The notes below the pieces were generated by a model that was given only the letters and a program-made list of their open reading frames with translations, did not search any database and was not told the DNA's origin. A DNA stretch of 33,091 bases from a virus. The stretch lies in UHGV virus genome UHGV-0073014; one strand, 5' to 3'. This document shows, piece after piece, positions 7,065-30,378 of the stretch (positions are counted from its first letter, which is position 1; each line of letters starts with the position of its first letter). The position numbers and the translations under genes were made by a program.

Positions 7065-7622
7065 TTAATTGCTCTTATTCGCCGGAAATTTTCTATAAAT
7101 GGTAGAAACGCCCACATCAAAAATCAGTGCAATACGCTGTCTTGATTCTCCAGCCTCAAGTAAACGCCCAATCTGTGCCCACTGTTCAGCTGTCAACTTA
7201 GGACGGCGTCCACCTACTCTACCTTTAGCACGAGCTGCAGCCAGCCCCGCCCTGGTACGTTCAACTATCAGTTCGCGTTCCATTTCAGCCAGGGCACCCA
7301 TGACATGAAAAAAGAAACGGCCCATTGGGGTGCTGGTATCAATACTGTCAGTCAGGCTTCGGAAATTCACGCCACGCTGGCGCAGCTCTTCTATCAGCGT
7401 AACGAGATGCCGCATACTGCGCCCCAGTCTGTCCAGCTTCCAGACAACCAGCGTGTCTCCTGCCGATAGTGTCCTGAGCAGCTTTTTCAGCCCCGGTCTG
7501 TCGGACTTGGTGCCACTGATTTTATCCTCAAAAATCCGCTCACATCCCGCGCAGTTCAGTGCATTACGTTGCAAATCGGTGTTCTGGTCATTTGTTGACA
7601 CGCGTACATAGCCAATAAGCAT
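7065..7622 (-). CDS. serine DNA invertase (Gin/Pin/Hin/Cin family)
   Basis: 185 aa, N-terminus MLIGYVRVSTNDQNTDLQ with the catalytic Ser context, C-terminal HTH; sits just outside an inverted-repeat-bounded segment. Confidence 0.95.
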   Translation of the reverse strand: MLIGYVRVSTNDQNTDLQRNALNCAGCERIFEDKISGTKSDRPGLKKLLRTLSAGDTLVVWKLDRLGRSMRHLVTLIEELRQRGVNFRSLTDSIDTSTPMGRFFFHVMGALAEMERELIVERTRAGLAAARAKGRVGGRRPKLTAEQWAQIGRLLEAGESRQRIALIFDVGVSTIYRKFPANKSN

Positions 7623-7624
7623 AA

Positions 7625-7632
7625 CCCCCCCC
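7625..7632. repeat. C8/G8 homopolymer 2 nt upstream of the invertase start codon
   Basis: Coding strand reads GGGGGGGG-TT-ATG. Confidence 0.9.
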
Positions 7633-7688
7633 TGAATAAAAACCGGAGATGATGCCAGTTAGCCGTTATCTCTGCATTTTCATAAACG

Positions 7689-7722
7689 TTGGTTTGGGAG
7701 AAGCGGCAAAACGGAATGTAGG
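7689..7722. repeat. left inverted repeat / invertase crossover site
   Basis: TTGGTTTGGGAGAAGCGGCAAAACGGAATGTAGG, exact reverse complement of 9236..9269; encodes the shared motif [11 protein letters not shown]. Confidence 0.85.
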
Positions 7723-8056
7723 TAACGGGCAAAACCAAATTCCGGATATGGCGGCGTTTGCCAGTTCACTTTCATCAACGGGTTTTCAAAAACTCCCTTC
7801 AGGTCTGATTATTCAGTGGGGTATTGTCAGTGGAGCATCAAACTATACGGTGACTTACCCGGTAACATTCCCAAATCGTTCACTTGCGCTGTTGGCTGTG
7901 CCACATACAACGTCGGTGGCTAGTATATCTGCAATGGGCATAGCGAACTGTTCTGATATCAGCAAATCACAGTTCTATATAATTGTTGGCGGTATATCTC
8001 AGGGAGAAATTGTCAAACATGAAAGGTCCTGTTTTTGGGTAGCAATCGGTGTATAG
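7723..8056 (+). CDS. alternative (currently unexpressed) tail-fibre C-terminal module
   Basis: Open frame continuing from the crossover motif ([10 protein letters not shown]...) parallel to the H C-terminus (GTGENQIPDM...); no promoter or start of its own. Confidence 0.7.
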
Positions 8057-8064
8057 GTATATCT

Positions 8065-8460
8065 ATGATTTATTTCTCAAAATCGACTAATGGTTTTTTC
8101 TTTGATGGTATAAACAGCGGCATGCCTGCTGACATTGTTGAGATAAGTACAGACTTATACAATGAATTAATTGCCGGACAGCAGGAAGGGGGTAAATTAA
8201 TCACGTCAGATGAAAATGGTTTACCGGTACTGAAATCTCCGGCGATTGATTATGTCGCACGTGCTGAAAATCAGCGAATGCAGTTACTTGCTCATGCCGA
8301 TAATGTCACAGCTGACTGGCGGGTGGAATTAATGCTTGGTGATATCAGCAGTACAGATAAAGAAAAACTATCTGCCTGGATGGACTACAAAAAAGAAGTA
8401 AAAGCCGTCGACACTTCGACGGCTCCTGAGATTAGCTGGCCTGAGTTACCGGAGATGTAG
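8065..8460 (+). CDS. tail-fibre assembly protein, partner of the alternative module
   Basis: About 131 aa; C-terminal DTSTAPEISWPELP motif shared with the convergent gene 8432..8875. Confidence 0.7.
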   Translation: MIYFSKSTNGFFFDGINSGMPADIVEISTDLYNELIAGQQEGGKLITSDENGLPVLKSPAIDYVARAENQRMQLLAHADNVTADWRVELMLGDISSTDKEKLSAWMDYKKEVKAVDTSTAPEISWPELPEM

Positions 8461-8875
8461 GCCATTCAATATCTGGAGCACTGGAGGTATCCACCAGTTC
8501 CAGTGCGTCCAGGTAATCCAGCCACAAATTATATTGCGCCAGTTCCTCACCTTTCAGACGACCAATAGCTGCTTTGCCAGGCCATTGCTTACTGTTCATG
8601 TATTCGTTAGCCTGGTTAATTAGTAGCTGTCTTTCTGATTCAGTAATTTCAATAAGCTCTTCATGCGTGGGTGGAGGAATATCTGCCCACGCAGGCAGCC
8701 CATCATCTCCGGCAATACGGATTTTTCCTTGTGGCGGTTCAGCCATAAACTCACTGATAATATTTTGATTTACTTCCTTTGCGTCTGATAAATCCCATCC
8801 CTCTGATTTATATTTATCAATCATATCCACAGGGAAAAAAGCATTATGCCTTGCGCTATAAACATATTTGTGCAT
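8432..8875 (-). CDS. tail-fibre assembly protein (gpG-like), expressed orientation
   Basis: Directly downstream of H; conserved C-terminal motif DTSSAPDIEWP. Confidence 0.8.
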   Translation of the reverse strand: MHKYVYSARHNAFFPVDMIDKYKSEGWDLSDAKEVNQNIISEFMAEPPQGKIRIAGDDGLPAWADIPPPTHEELIEITESERQLLINQANEYMNSKQWPGKAAIGRLKGEELAQYNLWLDYLDALELVDTSSAPDIEWPTSPVTQAS

Positions 8876-8895
8876 ATAAATCACCCTGAATAAAA

Positions 8896-21588: not shown

Positions 21589-22650
21589 TTAATATTCAAA
21601 ATTATTTTCTTCAATAGAGAACTCAATCCCTCGGGATAACTTATCAATATTCACATCAAATGCGATATCTGTTAATTCACCATCCTCGATTTCATACATA
21701 ACTTCAATTTCAATATCGAAACTAATCTCTTGAACTTCAGTTCGTGTGGTTGTCTCCATTGGAATCATTACTTTATCTTCGCTATCCCAATACCCATTAT
21801 TAAAGTCTGGACCAGAAACAGTAACTTCAAAATCTACAGAAACAGAGAAGGTCGCTAGACAATAATTATTGTTAATCTTAATTATTGATGGTTCAAAGTC
21901 ATCAATATTGACGACTTCAAATGAATCCAATTCAGCGTCTTCCCAAGTTGAAACGTTATATCCATCGGCATCATTGAGTTGGGCAATTACGTCCGCTCTT
22001 ATGTCTTCACGTTTGCTTTCGATAAACTGCATCAATTTATTACTTAATTCGTTTGTATGCGTATTGTATTCACCTAGAAACTTATCAAGTGAATCAATTT
22101 GATGAAGATTGTTTTTACCATCACAATAATTTTTTAAGTCACTATCCTCAGAAATGATATACACATCTTCATCATTAACAAATCGCTCTACCGCAGCTAA
22201 AGTGATTGCATCAGGAAACTCACTTTTTTTCTTATTTTGCCCAAATGGTGGTTCTTTGCCAAAGTATTTATCTAAAACCTCATTAAGATCTATTACTTCT
22301 ATTGTAGCTAATTTGGCGTGACATCCTTTCAAAAAATCATCAAAAACTTTTTGTGCTGCTTCGTGAATTTCATGTTCGTTAAATTGCTGAAAAAAACCAT
22401 GGAGCGGTCCATTATCAATACTATTCAAAAGCCTAGCTTTTCTTTGTACTGTGTTTATAGCCTGCAGAGCATCCTTTATTGATTCCTCTATTTTACCTTT
22501 TACTTCTCTCTCTACAACTGTAGTTGTAATTAAGACTAAATCACCTTTCGCACATAATTCATGGAAAGCTTTAAATGCTACCCCCTCAAAATGAAGACCA
22601 GCCTTTACGTACGTTTGTGTGTCAATAAATACCTTATTTGTTTTAAGCAT
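21589..22650 (-). CDS. PIN-like-domain protein with acidic beta-rich C-terminal domain; candidate defence/cargo gene
   Basis: 353 aa; N-terminus KVFIDTQTYV...LVLITTTVVEREVKGKIEE...EFPDAITLAAV...DVYIISEDSD fits a PIN-like nuclease pattern (conserved D, E, D); AT-rich; sits between portal Q and cos; candidate sigma70 promoter TTGATT-N17-TAATCT upstream. Confidence 0.6.
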   Translation of the reverse strand: MLKTNKVFIDTQTYVKAGLHFEGVAFKAFHELCAKGDLVLITTTVVEREVKGKIEESIKDALQAINTVQRKARLLNSIDNGPLHGFFQQFNEHEIHEAAQKVFDDFLKGCHAKLATIEVIDLNEVLDKYFGKEPPFGQNKKKSEFPDAITLAAVERFVNDEDVYIISEDSDLKNYCDGKNNLHQIDSLDKFLGEYNTHTNELSNKLMQFIESKREDIRADVIAQLNDADGYNVSTWEDAELDSFEVVNIDDFEPSIIKINNNYCLATFSVSVDFEVTVSGPDFNNGYWDSEDKVMIPMETTTRTEVQEISFDIEIEVMYEIEDGELTDIAFDVNIDKLSRGIEFSIEENNFEY

Positions 22651-22775
22651 ACTAATCCTAATAAGTTTTAAGATCCGCTACAATTGTTTATGTTTATTTT
22701 TTATCAATAATCATACGTAGTTAAGATTATCCATGTCGAAAAATTAAATCAACTTCAATTTATCCTTAAGCGCGC

Positions 22776-22794
22776 GCTCGTATCCCCGCCACGC
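22776..22794 (-). other. cos-like cohesive-end sequence
   Basis: Minus strand reads GGCGTGGCGGGGATACGAG, close to the P2/186 19-nt cohesive end (GGCG(A/T)GGCGGGGAAAGCA-), recalled from memory; GC-rich patch within AT-rich cargo. Confidence 0.6.
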
Positions 22795-22843
22795 CTGCCC
22801 GCTTTGTGTAGTGGTTTTCATGCACCTGCATGACATAAGCAAA

Positions 22844-22863
22844 AGCCCGCCAGCTCTGGCGGG
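22844..22863 (-). terminator. Rho-independent terminator for minus-strand transcription from the HNH gene
   Basis: GCCCGCCA-GAGC-TGGCGGGC followed by TTTTGCTT on the minus strand. Confidence 0.6.
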
Positions 22864-22977
22864 CATCAGCAAAAACGATCCTCAAACGATCATGCGATTT
22901 CATGCGGCATAGACATGCGTTGGCAAAAATGCACGAAATACTCAGCTTATAGGAAATGGTCTTTTTCCAACCTCCAG

Positions 22978-23697
22978 TTAGCCAAAGCAGAAACCAATAT
23001 TGCAATTTGAAACTCCACAGTTGTGAAATTGATGTGGACCGACTCTTAGCTTGTGTTCGTCTCCTACAATCCGAGTCCCCTTAACCAACATATCTAATCT
23101 TTCCACAATCAATCTTTCAGGCGCATCAACTTTAATAATTAAACGAGGACCTTTCCTTTTTTCTATAATAGTTATTCTAGGACCGACAACCTGAACATCC
23201 CAATGCCTTGCACTACATACCCACTCATTCTTAATTAATTCAAGATTAACAATACCTTGACTATCGTAAAATTTACCCGAAATAAGAAAAGCATTATTTT
23301 CTTTTTCAATGGTTAACAATGGCTCATTTTGAAACATTATTGGTACAGTACAGGATTCAAACGTCGCACCACCAAATATTATTGTTGGATGCCTATCAGA
23401 AAAGTCCAATATATCGGCCACATTCCCTTTTTGTAAGGCTGCAGGAGATTCCATTGCTTTAATGATTTTCTCTTTAGAGTAAAGACGTTTCGTTACTTTC
23501 GCATGACACGTAGGACAAAGTAGTGCTATTGCATTTGGAGAGTGCTCCTTTGCATCAGCGTATGTGGGAATTACATGCTCATACTCAACAATGGGAGAAG
23601 CACAAACAACGCAACCGAAGCCACAGCGCTGCCTTACCTCCAGTTTTACAGGTTCAGGAATTGTTCTAGATAACCCATGCTTGTTAATAGTTGTCAT
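22978..23697 (-). CDS. HNH-endonuclease-domain protein with unknown C-terminal domain; candidate defence gene
   Basis: 239 aa; CGFGCVVC...EYEHVIP...NAIALLCPTCHAKVTK fits the HNH zinc-finger nuclease motif; AT-rich; SD AAGGTAAGG before the ATG; lies between the SOS operon and cos. Confidence 0.65.
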   Translation of the reverse strand: MTTINKHGLSRTIPEPVKLEVRQRCGFGCVVCASPIVEYEHVIPTYADAKEHSPNAIALLCPTCHAKVTKRLYSKEKIIKAMESPAALQKGNVADILDFSDRHPTIIFGGATFESCTVPIMFQNEPLLTIEKENNAFLISGKFYDSQGIVNLELIKNEWVCSARHWDVQVVGPRITIIEKRKGPRLIIKVDAPERLIVERLDMLVKGTRIVGDEHKLRVGPHQFHNCGVSNCNIGFCFG

Positions 23698-24404: not shown

Positions 24405-26777
24405 TTAATACAGGTTTCGCCACTTATCATCTTCCTGCAAACGCTGGTTCCGATAGAAGATACGCAGGCCTGCTCCTGACGGAATACTGCCGCCGCGAAG
24501 CAGTAAATCGACCTCTTTCTCGCTGCCATCAAATCCCCTGGACTTCAGTTCATACACGAGCTGCTGTCGCTGATGATCTGTAATTCGCTGTTTGTAGTCT
24601 TTACGCCGTTTCGGTTTCACCAAGCGTAACCTTGCTGCCAGTTCCCGGCGCTCTTTTTTGCTCATACTGTGCAGGTAATCGTGCAACTCCTTGTCATCCA
24701 TGCGGGTGATATCCGTTCTGGTATCTCCATCAGCTGATTTGTCTTTCCCTTGTTGGTACAAATTTTCAGCAAGGGGACAGTTATTGCCACGAGTCCAAGG
24801 GGCGCAAGCGCCCTGGTCGGCTGCCGCCTCCTGAACATCAACGGCCTTACGAACCATTTTCCACTTCACGGCATGAGTGCAGATCTTGCCCTCTGCAATA
24901 GGTGACCAGATGCCATAAATACGAATGCCGTGATCGCCATAGGCGGTCGGCTCTTCGTTGATTTCATAAGCGGTTCTGATGAGGTGATATTTGCGGGGAA
25001 CCAGTACGCCGCCCTGCTTCATGATGTAGGTGGCAAAACAACCAGCATCAGCAGCAGCCAGGATGGCATCAAGGCGCGGGTTATCCAGTACCGGCGCACC
25101 TGCTTTTTTGTCCCCCTGTTGCCTTGCCGCCTGACCAGCCAGCAATCGCAGTTCACGGTAAGCCTGACGCCCCGGAATGCCAAAGAAGCGGAATTGCTGA
25201 ACACGATGCAGAGACGCCCAGGCATTAACGTATTCAGCATTATCACGCAGGGATTTCCCCGTTTCCTTGCTGATCTCGCCAGCCAGACCACGCCCGTCAA
25301 TGTTCTTACTGATGTATTTCGCGATGTAGCTTGTTGGCGTACCTTTGCGCGGGTTAATCAACTCAGACTTAAAGCGCGGCCCAGTGTTATTGCCCAGTTC
25401 CTCGCGGTCTTCACGGATGGCAAACTTACGCAGTAATGCAGTGATGGCGCGGCGGTCTTTTTTGCGCATAAAACACAACAGGTGCCAGTGAACTGTACCG
25501 TCATGATGCGGCTCAGCCACCCGCACGCCATACCACCGCAATCCGGCTTTGTGCATCGCCTTACGAAATGTAGCAAACATGCCGACCAGATAATCACTGC
25601 TTTGTCTTACCGTCGCATTTGTCCAGGTCGGGTTGGGCCTGCCATTATTTAGCGTGGAATGGAAACGTGACGGACAGGTGATGGTGTAGAAAACGGCGCA
25701 GTCACCGCGCATTTCCGCGATAAGCTCCAGGCCTTTAACACAGGCCATCATCTCATTGCGGCGATGCGCAGGGTTGCTGCTGCTGGCGTTTACCACATCC
25801 TCCATGTCCAGCGTGTCGCCGTCTTCGTTCACCAGTTCATGAGAACGAAAAAACTCCAGCGACTTACGGCGCTGCTCACGTTTATGCATCACGGCTTCAT
25901 AGCTGACATAGGGAGATGCTTTTTTGCTGACCAGGCAGACAGCACGCAACTGCTCTTCCCGCCATTCGCAACGCATCTTCCATAATTTCCGGTACCACCA
26001 GTCAGCGCACAACATACGCGCCAGCGAACCCGGAATGAGTTCATAGGGCACGGGTTTACGGCGGTTTCTTTTCCGGCGGAGTTGCTCAAACGCAGGCGGG
26101 ATGACATCCAGACGCAGGGTTTCCGCTGCCACCTTTTCCCATGTCTTGCGGATTTCTTCTGGCTTAACGTCATCGGTGACATACAAATCGCCACAAGCTG
26201 CATCAAGGCACATGCTCATATGCGCAGCTACCAGGGTGGACAGGCGTTTCACCTGATCCTGACTCATTTCAGGCAGGATCAGCAGGCCGTCCAGCCCTTC
26301 ATGGCTTGCCATAAAGCGAAAAGAAGTGGATAGCTGACAGTCGCGTACATGCTCCAGCCGTTCCAGACATGGCTTAATCGTCTCACGCAAATAGCGGGAA
26401 TAAGCCTTTGGCCTGCCCAGGCTGCTGAAGTATTCAATACGTTGCATCAGCGGCTTGCTGATATGGGAAGGCTGGGCATTGACGTCCGCCAGAATGACCA
26501 TATCTGGATTAAAACGCTGCTGCTCATGCGCCAGCTTTGCCCGACTAATGAGCTTATCCTGCTCCATTTCGCGCTGGACAGGATCACGGGATTCATTAAA
26601 GAAATAACGCTCCCAGACCTGATCGCTCAGTGCCTCGCGGCGCAGCTGTTCCTGCTCGTTATCGGCAGCGTACAGAGCGATCAGGTTTGAAAGCGCAGAA
26701 ACTGAAGATTGCTCTTCTGTCTCTACGTAAGGATTGATTGCTTTTTTCTCAGCATTCCAGGAATAGCTGTAGTTCAT
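24405..26777 (-). CDS. A: replication initiation protein A (rolling-circle nickase, P2 gpA-like)
   Basis: About 790 aa; start taken at MNYSYSW (26777), overlapping the stop of the upstream gene. Confidence 0.85.
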
Positions 26778-27607
26778 TACGCAATCTCCAGTTCGAGCTG
26801 TGAAGGCTGCAAACCATTCGACAGCCAATCAGAAACTGAAGGTGGGCGAACAGCTTCAATTGCACCTTTTAAAATTGCGCAACGGTTTTTCAGAATGACA
26901 GCTTTCAGCTCCTTTTCCGTCAGATTGCGCGAATACTCAGCCTCCTGAATAGCCCGCGTCAGCTCAGGATATTTGCTATTAAATTTGGGGACATTGCAGG
27001 CAAGATTTGTACTGTCGGCAGTCGCCAGTGGGTAATTTCCCAACACACGACCGTCAAGCATGCGCAAACCATGAACAGCTGTTTTGAAATTGTGTCGGCA
27101 ATAAATTGCTTCAAAAGCGTCCTGCATACGACGATGCCAGTGCGCAGTTCTGATAGCCGCATATTCACCAGACGATCCAAAGCAGACACGAGGCCATTCA
27201 CGACATAGCTCGATAAGCCGATCGATTGACTCGTGCATATGCCAGACGGGAGTTGCCTTCCCGTAGAACATTTTCGGAACTTCGTTTATCAGGGCATCAT
27301 TGTCACGTTCACCTCCGTCCACAACATCAGGAATGACAAAAAAAGCGACCTTAGGATGGTGGTAATAGTTCAGGAGCCATTTATAAAAATCACTCCAGTT
27401 AATTTTTAGCCCACGCACCCATGCAGAAAATGCGCCGTTATCAATGCCGACGACCTGAGCGTGCTGAATGGACGCCGCAATCTGATCTGGTCGTACATAG
27501 GAGACGAAAGCGCCAGCTCCGCTCACCGCAATACGATGAACGTCGCCAGCACTTCCCCAGACAGGCGTCCCATGGAAATGATGAATTCCGTGGTGCATTT
27601 CTTTCAC
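26777..27607 (-). CDS. hypothetical protein, possible TGT/DpdA-like DNA-modifying enzyme
   Basis: 276 aa; local motifs PVWG...[12 protein letters not shown]...[10 protein letters not shown]...AVHGL loosely resemble the tRNA-guanine transglycosylase barrel (PVGT, DSGGF, GVG); translationally coupled to dam. Weak, unverified. Confidence 0.3.
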
Positions 27608-28458
27608 ACTTGCACCCCGAAAATAACAGTAGAGTCACGTCCCCTACTAAAATCGGCACTAAACCAATTAGCAGATTTAGTGGCAATCATCTCTGTTGCA
27701 AATTTTCCCTCCCCCGCTGCAACGCCGATGCTGCGTTTCGCCCTGATGTAGTGGTGAGTGAAATTACGATAAAGGGACCGGGTCAAAGACGTGTTACTGT
27801 TAGAAACAATGACCGGATGTCCTTCTGATGACCGATGTTCAAGAATGGATGCCAGGTGATACTGATCATCTTCAGTGAAACCATCAGTGTGATAGCCGGA
27901 AAACGTACCGTCATAAGGCGGATCGCAATACACCACATCCCCCACCTTCAACATCGCCAGCGTTTCATCAAAGCTGGCGCAGATAAACGTTGCCCGCTGG
28001 GCTTTCTCTGCAAATGCGCGAATTTCTTTTTCAGGGAAATACGGATTTTTATAATTACCGTAGGGAATGTTGAAATGTCCGCTCTTGTTATAGCGACATA
28101 AACCACGGTAACCGTGACGATTGAGATACAGGAAATATACCGCTTTCATGAAATCAGTAATTTCAGTGGAGTAATTAAACTCCTGCCTTATGTTGTAATA
28201 AGCTACCTCCCTGTTTGCTTCCTCAAATAAAGCTCTGGCACGAGATATAAACGCCTCACAATCAGCAGCAACCTTTTTATAGAGGTTGATTAAATCAGGA
28301 TTAATATCCGCAACAAGATAGCTGGGGTAATCCGTCTCCATCATCACTGCACAGGAACCCGCGAAAGGTTCAACCAGTCGCGGGCCAGCAGGAAGATGCT
28401 TTTTCAGTTCGGACATTATGGCGGTTTTATTTCCTGCCCATTTCAGGATGGTGCTCAT
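27604..28458 (-). CDS. dam: DNA adenine methyltransferase (Dam-like)
   Basis: ILKWAGNK near the N-terminus and a DPPY catalytic motif; start at MSTILKW overlaps the upstream stop. Confidence 0.9.
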
Positions 28459-28682
28459 ACAGCACCTCCGTTGTAATGTTTGCCTTTCAGCTCTGCGATT
28501 TCCTGACAGGTAATGCAAAGCTGCACACCCGGAATGGCACGGCGGCGTGCTGGCGGAATTGGCGCTTCACACTCAACGCAAAGCACGCGGGACACGCCCG
28601 GCATTTTGGCACGGGCAGCACGGATATGGCGTTGGCGTTCTTCTTCAACGCGCTGCTGTACGAGATCCATTGCATCAGCCAT
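28455..28682 (-). CDS. TraR/DksA-family C4 zinc-finger protein
   Basis: 75 aa with CVEC-x16-CITC, as in phage TraR-like proteins. Confidence 0.75.
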   Translation of the reverse strand: MADAMDLVQQRVEEERQRHIRAARAKMPGVSRVLCVECEAPIPPARRRAIPGVQLCITCQEIAELKGKHYNGGAV

Positions 28683-28921
28683 CAGTGGATCTCCTGCGCT
28701 TCGTTCTGGATTGCTTCAGCAGTCACACGCAGCAGTTCTGCCGCTTCGACGTGGTTTAGCTGGCGGGAGGTGATATGACACGCCAGGCTATCGAGGCGAG
28801 CAGCCATTGCTTCAGCCCTTGCCCGGCGTTCTTCCAGACGAGCCTCTGTCAGTAAAAGATTAAGACCTGCATCATCCGGTCCGGTTTTGGTCGTGAGGGT
28901 TTCAATATTACGCATAAGCAA
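28682..28921 (-). CDS. hypothetical early-region protein
   Basis: 79 aa ORF co-oriented and abutting neighbouring early genes. Confidence 0.5.
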   Translation of the reverse strand: MLMRNIETLTTKTGPDDAGLNLLLTEARLEERRARAEAMAARLDSLACHITSRQLNHVEAAELLRVTAEAIQNEAQEIH

Positions 28922-28982: not shown

Positions 28983-29324
28983 TTAATTCGGCATGGTTAG
29001 CCGTCTGGGAAATAAGCTCACCACTGCACGAAAATGATTCATTGCTTTAATCAACTCCCGCTTTTCGTCAGTGGTCAGCTCATTAATGCTGATGCTATGA
29101 CGTTCAGCTGGAATTTTTGCCATAAAGAATATGGCAGCCAGTGCCCGTTTATTTTGTTCATTATTGATATCCCGAGGATCACGCATATCTTTAATAAACC
29201 GCTCAAGCTCTGACTCAATATTCAAACCAAAAACTTTCGCCCTTAACTCCGCAATATGATTAAGTCCATTCAGGCGTTCACCGGGTCTTAATGGAACAGT
29301 CGCCGCAGCGCCTTCAATAGCCAT
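28983..29324 (-). CDS. hypothetical early-region protein
   Basis: 113 aa ORF in the early operon. Confidence 0.5.
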   Translation of the reverse strand: MAIEGAAATVPLRPGERLNGLNHIAELRAKVFGLNIESELERFIKDMRDPRDINNEQNKRALAAIFFMAKIPAERHSISINELTTDEKRELIKAMNHFRAVVSLFPRRLTMPN

Positions 29325-29518
29325 TTGTTCCCCCGTTTTTTCGTAGATAGTTCTGCCAGCAATTCATCTTGTGAACGGCACGGATGCCAGCGTTTACCAT
29401 CCTCACCCATGATCCAGCCGTGACCGTAGTGCATTGCCGGACTTTGTTTTACCAGCAGCGATGCAAATGATGGTTCGTTCGTCAGCATAAGCACCTCACA
29501 GCAAACCGAATGAAGCAC
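29288..29518 (-). CDS. hypothetical small protein (start uncertain)
   Basis: 76 aa ORF downstream of the CII-like gene; overlaps its neighbours. Confidence 0.35.
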   Translation of the reverse strand: MLHSVCCEVLMLTNEPSFASLLVKQSPAMHYGHGWIMGEDGKRWHPCRSQDELLAELSTKKRGNKWLLKALRRLFH

Positions 29519-30011
29519 CGAGGCCAGTCACGGTATCAACTGCACTCGCCATCGCAGGATTAGCCTGTAAACGGGCCTGCAATGAAACAGCAGCCAGCGC
29601 CATCAGTCGTGTAACAGAGTTAATGCTGCTGATCGCATCACGACGGCCTGCACTGGTTTTTACATCGCCAGAAACCGCACCTGCCGCGACACGCCCTATC
29701 TCTGCAGTTGCACTCATGACGTAATGCGGCAGTTTCTCTTTTGCTACCTCATTAATCGGTACACATGGCAGGCAGTGAATCTGTGCCAGAAAGCCATCTA
29801 CCAGCGTTGAATCTTCAGTCAGATCGGTAAGCAACCAGATTTCTGGTGCGGTTAATAAATGAGGTTGAGCTGGGTTCAGCTTGTTCCGCAGAATCTGCAC
29901 ATTCATGCCTGCACGTTCTGCCAGTTGCACTAGGTTGTGGCGCAATGCGAATGCACGACAGGCTTCATCAAAATGTGGATGTTTGGAAACTTGGTAATCA
30001 AACATGGTCAA
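29496..30011 (-). CDS. cII: CII-like transcriptional activator (coliphage 186 CII family)
   Basis: N-terminus [19 protein letters not shown] and C-terminus TGLGASFGL match recalled 186 CII. Confidence 0.8.
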
Positions 30012-30037: not shown

Positions 30038-30259
30038 CTAATTAAGGTTTAGATTGCATTCTGAAAGCGCATCAACGGTCATGGCTGCTATGTTGATCAT
30101 CACTTTTTCACGTTTTTTATCTTTGCGCAGACGGTGACGGATAAGGCGTCCGTCAGCCAACATGTCATTGATGGTATCGATGGACAGCCCTGTCAGCTCG
30201 CTATAGCGTTCAATAGTCACATGAGGCGTGGTAAGAGTGATTGAAATGTTAGGTCTCAT
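30038..30259 (-). CDS. apl: Apl/Cox-like excisionase and transcriptional regulator
   Basis: 73 aa, HTH-like, first gene of the lytic operon, divergent from the repressor gene. Confidence 0.7.
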
Positions 30260-30378
30260 GATGCAACATTCCTCGTTTAATGATGATTAATCAGGACGAA
30301 TACGGATCGTTTGTATTTTGTGAACACCATAAACATACGATCGCACATTGAAATCGTCAAGATAAAAGTTCACTTGGA
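30260..30378. promoter_or_regulatory. lysis/lysogeny switch region between apl and cI
   Basis: 119 bp AT-rich intergenic region between divergent regulators; contains palindrome TGATTAATCA. Confidence 0.5.

Follow-up and report, generated by a model that had tools for sequence, protein, structure and literature searches.

[quoted passage not shown] This arrangement raises the question of whether the 276-aa protein is a DpdA-like enzyme and, if so, whether the two genes work as a single DNA-modification and anti-restriction module. As the best explanation overall, we consider it likely that these are two DNA-modification genes, independent of each other, that share the accessory slot of a P2/186-like early operon.

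Dam and the 276-aa ORF in a prophage early operon

The DNA comes from a P2/186-like E. coli prophage whose early lytic operon has the gene order CII-Fil-DUF5347-DUF2732-TraR/DksA-Dam-DpdA-gpA, with the two genes in its accessory slot. A sigma-70-like promoter found by a consensus scan only (TTGACG-17-TATGTT; 30332..30360, minus strand) stands ahead of this operon, and its position opposite the CI repressor gene would suit the 186-type early promoter. The other ORFs scanned in the window were ordinary P2/186-type or accessory genes.

The genes on either side of the pair share its orientation and are joined to it by stop/start overlaps that can be read from the sequence, all on the minus strand. 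Upstream, a TraR/DksA zinc-finger gene similar to P2 orf82 (28455..28682; PF01258, E = 4e-11) meets dam (27604..28458; 284 aa; ATG at 28458, stop at 27604) in an ATGA overlap at 28455..28458. The stop of dam and the start of the dpdA-like gene (26777..27607; 276 aa; GTG at 27607, stop at 26777-26779) lie within GTGA at 27604..27607, consistent with translational coupling, and the dpdA-like gene runs into the gene for a P2-type replication initiator, gpA (24405..26777; PF05840, E = 2e-127), through TAATG at 26775..26779. The 276-aa ORF thus lies at the coordinates originally given, and its stop overlaps the start of A as described. The 1-nt overlap at the dpdA/A junction recurs in a related locus (L006), and in Salmonella phage SEN1 the overlap is 4 nt. 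A terminator-like hairpin was also seen at the dam/dpdA junction (27649-27627); terminator-like sites as a class did not exceed shuffled expectation (9 observed, 6.9 +/- 2.9 expected).

The first gene of the pair encodes a Dam-family N6-adenine methyltransferase, as had been clear from its KWAGNK (aa 6-11; 28426-28443) and DPPY (aa 179-182; 27913-27924) motifs, which supply the SAM-binding and DPPY signatures of this family. The protein matches Pfam PF02086 (E = 2.4e-76) and scores 318 bits against TIGR00571, for which the cutoff is 114.85; against the E. coli Dam equivalog model it scores 288 bits, under the cutoff of 441. A Shine-Dalgarno sequence, GGAGG, is found 8 nt 5' of the dam start.

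For the second gene, RefSeq gives only the name 'hypothetical protein', as do almost all of the closest database clusters that have a name. RefSeq places its start at an ATG at 27598, three codons 3' of the GTG, giving 273 aa; the overlapping GTG is favoured here because homologues that lack the internal Met begin at the GTG column of the alignment. A search at E<=1e-3 recovered 4369 homologues, which form 555 clusters at 50% identity. We rejected the notion of a chance ORF at 26777..27607, given this conservation and the confidence of the AF2 model (pLDDT 94.2). The gene was found in 107 of 5426 complete E. coli genomes (about 2%), including that of the widely used strain E. coli ATCC 8739, where a 99.8% identical copy sits in an apparently complete P2-like prophage with structural, lysis, replication, repressor and integrase genes.

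Family membership of the 276-aa protein

Sequence comparisons indicate that the 276-aa protein is, very probably, a member of the DpdA family of 7-deazaguanine DNA transglycosylases, enzymes that exchange guanine in DNA for a 7-deazaguanine, and that it falls within the 'DpdA-only' (singleton) clade of gamma-proteobacterial phages. It matches PHROG 887, 'queuine tRNA-ribosyltransferase' (E = 7e-97), the family to which SEN1 gp38, MED16 gp38 and 7-11 gp032 also belong, and tblastn alignments spanning 92% or more of the length gave identities of 75% to SEN1 gp38, 54% to MED16 gp38 and 34% to 7-11 gp032 (E = 2e-50). Supplementary Data 1 of Hutinet 2019 includes the SEN1 and 7-11 proteins (YP_009217891 and YP_004782407) among the DpdAs of 'DpdA-only' phages, and the three phages correspond to group 3 of that study and to the DpdA/TGT_1 cluster of the MED16 paper (PMC8306585). 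All three proteins have, in common with the 276-aa protein, a zinc-less core of ~200 aa with the motifs DNGAFS, PD, PVWH, GSSG, HGLR and DS. Pantoea phage MED16 and Salmonella phage 7-11 are virulent, whereas the prophage described here is temperate.

The family could also be connected to DpdA1 of the Queuovirinae (Escherichia phage CAjan gp35, phage 9g), where deletion of CAjan dpdA abolishes dPreQ0 and so provides genetic proof of preQ0 insertion into DNA. Using hhalign, we aligned a 110-sequence family profile to CAjan DpdA (98.6% probability, E = 1.2e-15) and to a 12-sequence DpdA1 alignment (99.5% probability, E = 2.1e-23, 165 columns); the DpdA1 set was gathered from GenBank phages, a search of viral contigs with CAjan DpdA having returned close relatives only. 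CAjan DpdA reaches the family member of phage Epa33 directly by tblastn (E = 9e-5). Pairwise identity between the two groups is only about 20%, and the C-terminal regions past beta8 are unrelated.

Outside the phage proteins, sequence similarity fell away. Scans against Pfam, NCBIfam and PADLOC found no match to TGT, DpdA or Cap10, either for the query or among the 110 family members, and the family was missed by every NCBIfam model. PF01702, the family of Tgt and ArcTGT, which act on tRNA and carry a zinc site (C302xCxxC in E. coli Tgt), lay below every sequence threshold tried, with no match even at E<=1 for the query and all 110 members; the CAjan, 7-11 and MED16 DpdAs were also missed by this model. 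Searches of PDB sequences with the protein by phmmer and with the family profile by hmmsearch gave noise only (GCN4, coat protein; E>0.4), and phmmer with CAjan DpdA found nothing there. Neither the family profile nor the DpdA1 profile aligned significantly with the single E. coli Tgt sequence by hhalign, although with the DpdA1 profile the DSG motifs were brought into register. Bacterial DpdA from the Dpd island of Salmonella Montevideo (PDB 7UI4) had no match to the family detectable by HMM. That enzyme is about 410 aa long, with a zinc site and a large Ins8, neither of which is found here, and it needs the DpdB ATPase before DpdC makes ADG; neither partner is evident at this locus.

The known phage DpdA family gains a previously unannotated member, which closes a gap in annotation and is not new biology.

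Fold and active-site residues

The 276-aa protein consists of a TGT-type TIM barrel of about 200 aa, minimal and zinc-less, and a C-terminal helical tail of roughly 70 aa that is specific to the enterobacterial clade. The AF2 model (pLDDT 94.2, pTM 0.90) predicts a TGT-type (beta/alpha)8 barrel with eight beta-strands and places all the conserved residues at strand C-terminal ends. In BFVD, 32 matches were found at E<=1e-3, of which those with functional names were nearly all phage 'queuine tRNA-ribosyltransferase'. The best structural neighbour was Cap10. The tentative TGT/DpdA-like assignment is therefore borne out by family membership, DpdA homology, the profile-profile match and the fold, which all agree. 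The lack of a C-terminal zinc site, which had been held against it, was confirmed in that no CxCxxC motif occurs in the protein; this absence is, however, normal for phage DpdA, because the CAjan, 7-11, MED16 and SEN1 enzymes also lack CxCxxC, as does Cap10.

The residues expected of the active site could be matched one to one with DpdA1 (D56/D63, D94/D105, H123/H132, G144/G153, H179/H187 and D198-S199/D206-S207, CAjan numbering second). Conservation of D56, D94, H123, H179 and D198 across the family is 89-100%, and their DpdA1 counterparts are near-invariant; the equivalence to D95, D130, H181 and D256 of bacterial DpdA rests on strand position only. D56-N57-G58-A59 lies at the end of beta3, in a 12-residue segment at aa 52-63 (27419..27454, minus strand), and corresponds to DSGAFS in DpdA1, DSGGF in TGT and D95 in bacterial DpdA, for which a general acid/base role has been described (PMC10164549). 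D56 is kept in 98% of 102 aligned sequences, and the resemblance of DNGAFS to DSGGF had been rightly seen from the sequence. After beta4, the invariant D94 of PDVV (aa 93-96; 27320..27331, minus strand), which aligns with the invariant L104-D105 of DpdA1, is a candidate base-recognition Asp (D130 in bacterial DpdA, D156 in TGT). At the end of beta5, the invariant H123 of PVWH (aa 120-123; 27239..27250, minus strand) is a candidate equivalent of H181 in bacterial DpdA and K154 in Cap10, its role being read across from PMC10164549 and the Cap10 preprint.

The glycine-rich loop after beta6, GSSG (aa 144-147; 27167..27178, minus strand), in which G144 is 97% conserved, would be the counterpart of the loop with which TGT and DpdA recognise the 7-substituent. 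This corrects the sequence-only reading, which had likened AVHGL to the GVG of TGT. The motifs it quoted are all present (PVWG at aa 15-18, the segment at aa 52-63 and AVHGL at aa 177-181), but H179 of AVHGL aligns with a conserved DpdA1 His (KxHG). Within AVHGL...ADST (aa 177-200; 27008..27079, minus strand), H179 in beta7 and D198-S199 at the end of beta8, with H179 and D198 at least 89% conserved, form a candidate pair of catalytic His and Asp nucleophile (H226/D248 in Cap10, D256 in bacterial DpdA, D280 in TGT), with roles again taken from PMC10164549 and the Cap10 preprint.

Predicted DNA modification and rival readings

We think it somewhat probable that the 276-aa protein deposits a 7-deazaguanine in DNA. 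On induction or infection, Dam and DpdA would be made together with the replication initiator and would act on freshly replicated phage DNA, where Dam is predicted to methylate adenine, probably in GATC. DpdA would follow the double-displacement route of TGT, in which D198 would attack C1' and guanine would leave, with D56 serving as general acid/base and D94, H123 and the GSSG loop reading the incoming base. The expelled guanine would be replaced by a 7-deazaguanine from the host queuosine pathway. DpdA1 phages carry folE-queD-queE-queC, all of which are missing from the singleton clade, and because SEN1, MED16 and 7-11 lack preQ0-synthesis genes the base must come from the host. The precursor is probably at hand: of 5426 complete E. 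coli genomes, 5425 have the host queC. No folE, queC, queD or queE homologues adjoin the dpdA-like genes of close relatives; the neighbours of distant members include YhhQ-type Vut_1 transporters (6 loci), QueD/PTPS (4 loci) and, once, a QueE-like gene.

From the analogy with MED16 and 7-11, the expected product would be sparse, motif-restricted dADG or dPreQ0 at well under 1% of G. DNA of phage 7-11 contains dADG at 0.02% of G (PMC6884629) and that of MED16 dADG at 0.13% of G with trace dPreQ0 (PMC8306585), so that analysed singleton members span 0.02-0.13%, against the 25-32% of G modified in DpdA1 phages; in Mycobacteriophage Orion, from a different singleton cluster, no modification was found. 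The presumed benefit is escape from some restriction or defence systems. A measurable anti-restriction effect of the DpdA-like modification is possible but doubtful, and the dADG of MED16 gave no protection from the restriction enzymes tried (PMC8306585). This very low level of modification in the analysed relatives counts against the best explanation, as does the fact that they contain dADG and not preQ0, yet no DpdC-like hydratase is found here. The unprotected DNA of MED16, the unmodified DNA of Orion, the lack of a DpdB-like partner and the failed matches to models and sequences outside the phage proteins also speak against it.

The 'hypothetical' gene belongs to a family regarded as a signature of 7-deazaguanine DNA modification, and the ATCC 8739 prophage offers a tractable temperate-phage system for the DpdA-only clade, in which the inserted base, its motif, the cause of its low level and its benefit can be addressed. 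This is also relevant to GrwAB, the Dag glycosylases and other defences that act against DNA containing 7-deazaguanine.

The dADG of 7-11 and MED16, made without DpdC, could be read differently, if with little likelihood: the singleton clade may be specialised for a 7-amido headgroup, like Cap10, rather than being a weak preQ0 insertase. At rare, specific DNA sites it might then directly insert either ADG, the intermediate of QueC, or a conjugate of 7-carboxy-7-deazaguanine joined by an amide link. The dADG would be what the enzyme itself makes, or else what hydrolysis leaves of a larger hypermodification. If this were true, the sparse mark in a temperate P2-like phage could be a signal for packaging, replication or self-recognition and would not be bulk anti-restriction armour.

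The proposal that Dam and DpdA are a functional pair held only insofar as they form one translationally coupled operon, since the genes occur independently in relatives. A co-evolved, obligate anti-restriction pair, mutually dependent or sharing a target site, would fit the adjacent, co-oriented genes with their GTGA overlap, the repetition of the dam-dpdA-A order in an Atlantibacter prophage (L011), the N6-adenine methyltransferase gene about 1.2 kb from dpdA in MED16 and the N6_N4 methyltransferase domain fused to one member of the DpdA-like family. The comparative counts nevertheless make such a module improbable, and we rejected it on these grounds: of 5426 complete E. coli genomes, 1238 have this prophage dam and only 107 the dpdA-like gene; in Klebsiella phage 4LV2017 dam is followed directly by A with no dpdA; and in SEN1, a P2-like phage, dpdA fills the same slot directly 5' of gpA with no dam, unlike in this prophage. 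A Dam of the type found in the window lay within 5 kb (<=5 kb) of the dpdA-like gene in only 2 of 80 species-representative loci, with another D12 methyltransferase in two or three more, and C5 methyltransferases are the commoner neighbours (among distant members, 11 loci against about 4 for D12).

In another reading the protein would be like Cap10 of type IV CBASS (PDB 9NTN), which forms a complex with CdnD and Cap9 and binds a base linked to protein. It would then bind 7-deazaguanine and not act on DNA: it might bind a 7-amido-7-deazaguanine conjugate or transfer it on protein, or serve to inhibit type IV CBASS or other queuosine-derived defences, or as a decoy for them. We consider this quite improbable, as the resemblance is structural only, while sequence homology points to the DNA-acting DpdA1 (E = 2e-23) and dADG does occur in the DNA of two related phages. 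Moreover, the PADLOC Cap10 model matched 0 of the 110 family members, and neither a CD-NTase or Cap9/QueC-like neighbour nor any CBASS genes were found at this locus. Very unlikely, too, is a TIM-barrel enzyme of other chemistry, such as an excision-only DNA glycosylase or a sugar or nucleotide hydrolase, for which the 7-deazaguanine link would be coincidental; the full TGT/DpdA active-site constellation is kept at the right strands, distant members adjoin the QueD, QueE-like and YhhQ-like transporter genes, and the BFVD neighbours are phage TGT-like proteins. That the protein remodels host or phage tRNA (queuosine or archaeosine-type) instead of DNA is scarcely credible, despite its TGT-like fold and the name 'queuine tRNA-ribosyltransferase' that PHROG and many GenBank records give to its homologues: these names are similarity transfers, the protein has no zinc subdomain, falls about 100 aa short of the length of TGT and is missed by PF01702, E. 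coli already has Tgt, and the nearest validated homologue acts on DNA.

Affiliation of the 276-aa protein with phage DpdA

The ORF lying between the Dam methylase gene and gpA on the minus strand (27607..26777) encodes a 276-aa protein that is placed by several independent lines of evidence in the phage family of DpdA, the 7-deazaguanine DNA transglycosylases, of which it is a new, unannotated member. The protein matches the phage protein family PHROG 887, 'queuine tRNA-ribosyltransferase', with an E value of 7e-97, and a tblastn search of GenBank phages identified matches in 105 records, including homologues in the Salmonella P2-like phage SEN1 (75% identity), Pantoea phage MED16 (54%) and Salmonella phage 7-11 (34%, E 2e-50). 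Supplementary Data 1 of Hutinet et al. 2019 lists SEN1 YP_009217891 and 7-11 YP_004782407 as DpdA, within a group described as 'DpdA only, no preQ0 genes' (PMC6884629). Of the viral homologues of MED16 DpdA, the two closest include SEN1 gp38; MED16 DpdA itself matches T. maritima TGT at 99.18% by HHpred (PMC8306585). The family, and even its P2-like lineage, has been listed as DpdA since 2019.

Profile-profile comparisons gave the same placement. A 110-sequence family profile matched the validated DpdA1 of Escherichia phage CAjan, in which deletion of dpdA abolishes dPreQ0 (PMC6884629), with 98.6% probability (E 1.2e-15), and matched a 12-sequence DpdA1 alignment, assembled here from Queuovirinae, Rhizobium, Cellulophaga and Rosebush-type mycobacteriophages, at 99.5% (E 2.1e-23, 165 columns). 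In the alignment, near-invariant residues of the singleton family and of DpdA1 coincide: D56-N-G-A of the 276-aa protein with D63-S-G-A of CAjan DpdA, P93-D94 with L104-D105, P120..H123 with P129..H132, G144 with G153, H179 with H187, and P193..D198-S199 with P201..D206-S207. By strand position, residues of the protein correspond to the active site of a bacterial DpdA, in which D95 is the general acid/base at beta3, D130 lies at beta4, H181 at beta5 and a Gly loop at beta6, with D256 as the nucleophile at beta8 (PMC10164549). Searches of Pfam and NCBIfam gave no match to the protein, nothing was found for it or its family in the PDB by sequence or profile HMM, and neither Pfam TGT nor the PADLOC Cap10/DpdA models matched any of 110 diverse family members.

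From topology, we infer a further correspondence with the D248/H226 pair of Cap10. A Cap10-like function, whether in conjugating proteins or in countering CBASS, has structural support only and is unlikely. The sequence-only reading, which had proposed a TGT/DpdA-like enzyme encoded beside Dam, remarked that the C-terminal zinc site was missing. This absence is real and poses no problem, as the CxCxxC motif, found at residue 302 of E. coli Tgt, is also absent from the CAjan, 7-11, MED16 and SEN1 DpdAs, and Cap10 likewise lacks it; a tRNA-directed TGT, the activity named in the PHROG label, is unlikely. Set beside the shared near-invariant residues, unrelated TIM-barrel chemistry is also unlikely. 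The finding is real and the DpdA interpretation essentially correct, with the coordinates, junctions and quoted motifs of that reading all confirmed.

Operon structure and the Dam-DpdA pair

The window represents a P2/186-like prophage of E. coli, adjoined by rcdA/ybjJ. For the 1.8-kb region under study, identity is 100% with NZ_LR778153 and 99.8% with E. coli ATCC 8739. A promoter-like site (30360-30332) was identified, together with an early lytic operon of nine minus-strand genes: an Apl/Cox-like ORF (30038-30259), CII (29496-30011), Fil (29288-29518), DUF5347 (28983-29324), DUF2732 (28682-28921), TraR/DksA (28455-28682), Dam (27604-28458), the 276-aa ORF (26777-27607) and gpA (24405-26777). 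Direct reading of the sequence shows the junctions to be ATGA between TraR/DksA and Dam, GTGA between Dam and the 276-aa ORF, and TAATG between this ORF and gpA. As for the start codon (27596-27607), RefSeq WP_001420002.1 of ATCC 8739 begins at ATG 27598, giving 273 aa; homologues that lack the internal Met start at the column of GTG 27607, which overlaps the dam stop. A weak terminator-like hairpin (27627-27649, minus strand; 8 pairs, 3 GC, tail TTATTTTCGG) lies at the cassette junction, within the last dam codons and just ahead of where the dpdA-like gene starts, and may be due to chance, since terminator-like sites were not found to be enriched in the region.

The identification of the upstream gene as a Dam-like methyltransferase proved straightforward, with matches to PF02086 (E 2.4e-76) and TIGR00571 (318 bits, cutoff 114.85), and both KWAGNK and DPPY motifs present. 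The protein scores lower than the equivalog cutoff set for chromosomal E. coli Dam, so specificity for GATC, though likely, is an inference.

The two genes are co-transcribed here and, through the GTGA overlap, translationally coupled, but the pairing is not conserved, and comparative counts contradict an obligate Dam-DpdA module: among 5426 complete E. coli genomes, 1238 carry this prophage dam and 107 the dpdA-like gene; in Klebsiella phage 4LV2017 dam is followed directly by A; in SEN1 dpdA is followed directly by A, without dam; and dam is present in only one of six enterobacterial P2-like loci with a dpdA-like gene in the TraR-to-gpA slot. The best description is of two independent accessory DNA-modification cassettes in a common slot upstream of gene A. 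A protein from one Logan contig (P0011, 421 aa) appears to be a Dam-DpdA fusion, carrying PF02086 and sharing 99% identity with ORF residues 48-276. With the genes overlapping at GTGA, such a fusion would arise from a frameshift or deletion at their junction; an artefact of assembly or mutation is the probable explanation.

Proposed mechanism and benefit

The analysis establishes family, fold, conserved active-site residues and operon structure, together with host precursor capacity (queC is present in 5425 of 5426 complete E. coli genomes). Both enzymes would be made with gpA from the early promoter, and DpdA would exchange bases after replication by the TGT double-displacement route, taking preQ0 or ADG from the host. 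Sparse modification would be expected. The only measurements in the DpdA-only clade are of dADG, which accounts for 0.02% of G in phage 7-11 (PMC6884629) and 0.13% of G in MED16 (PMC8306585). An anti-restriction benefit is the least secure step of this proposal, because no protection by the MED16 modification was detected against the restriction enzymes tested (PMC8306585). No analysis of a clade member from a P2-like or temperate phage was found in the literature searched, and an E. coli prophage offers a convenient system for testing what DpdA-only enzymes achieve.

Distant relatives and other segments of the window

Genomic context is a further line of evidence for the DpdA placement. Across 80 species-representative loci, distant family members adjoin YhhQ-type Vut_1 transporters in six, QueD/PTPS in four and a QueE-like gene in one, while C5 DNA methyltransferases are neighbours in 11 and D12 methyltransferases in about four. 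Examples of such neighbours are QueD/PTPS at L030 1076-1465 (E 4e-20), the YhhQ-type Vut_1 transporter at L038 2151-2633 (E 1e-12), the QueE-like gene at L031 2505-3146 and a C5 DNA methyltransferase of 597 aa at L041 1468-3261. Thus not every member of the DpdA-only clade is strictly a singleton. A conserved ORF of ~82 aa with no Pfam match lies beside the DpdA-like gene in 11 of the 80 loci (L039 4750-4998 and ten others, from Pseudomonas and beta-proteobacterial prophages), directly upstream in nine and directly downstream in two, and could encode a partner protein of short-form members. In many lambdoid and other temperate phages, including SfI, SPN3UB, SI5/SI8 and the Vibrio D-series, the homologue is shorter: it aligns with residues ~10-206 only and has no C-terminal helical tail. 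That of Klebsiella phage KO-TP1 is adjoined by a DUF1317 gene.

Elsewhere in the window, a low-GC island on the minus strand (21589-23697; 36-41% versus about 55% in structural genes) separates the portal gene from the DinI/gpA region. It codes for a PIN_12-domain protein of 353 aa (PF16289, E 1.6e-25) and an HNH endonuclease of 239 aa (PF01844, E 2.4e-5), and PADLOC gives a faint type IV REase match here (E 0.0095). ATCC 8739 has other genes at this position, near which P2-like phages have a known defence-gene hotspot, and the island looks like cargo of a variable accessory slot. A serine DNA invertase (7065-7622; Resolvase and HTH_7, E 2e-53) adjoins a C-terminal tail-fibre fragment in the opposite orientation (Gp53-like_C) and a pair of tail-fibre assembly genes. 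The segment (7065-8884), where GC content also dips, resembles a host-range invertible segment of the Gin/Cin type.
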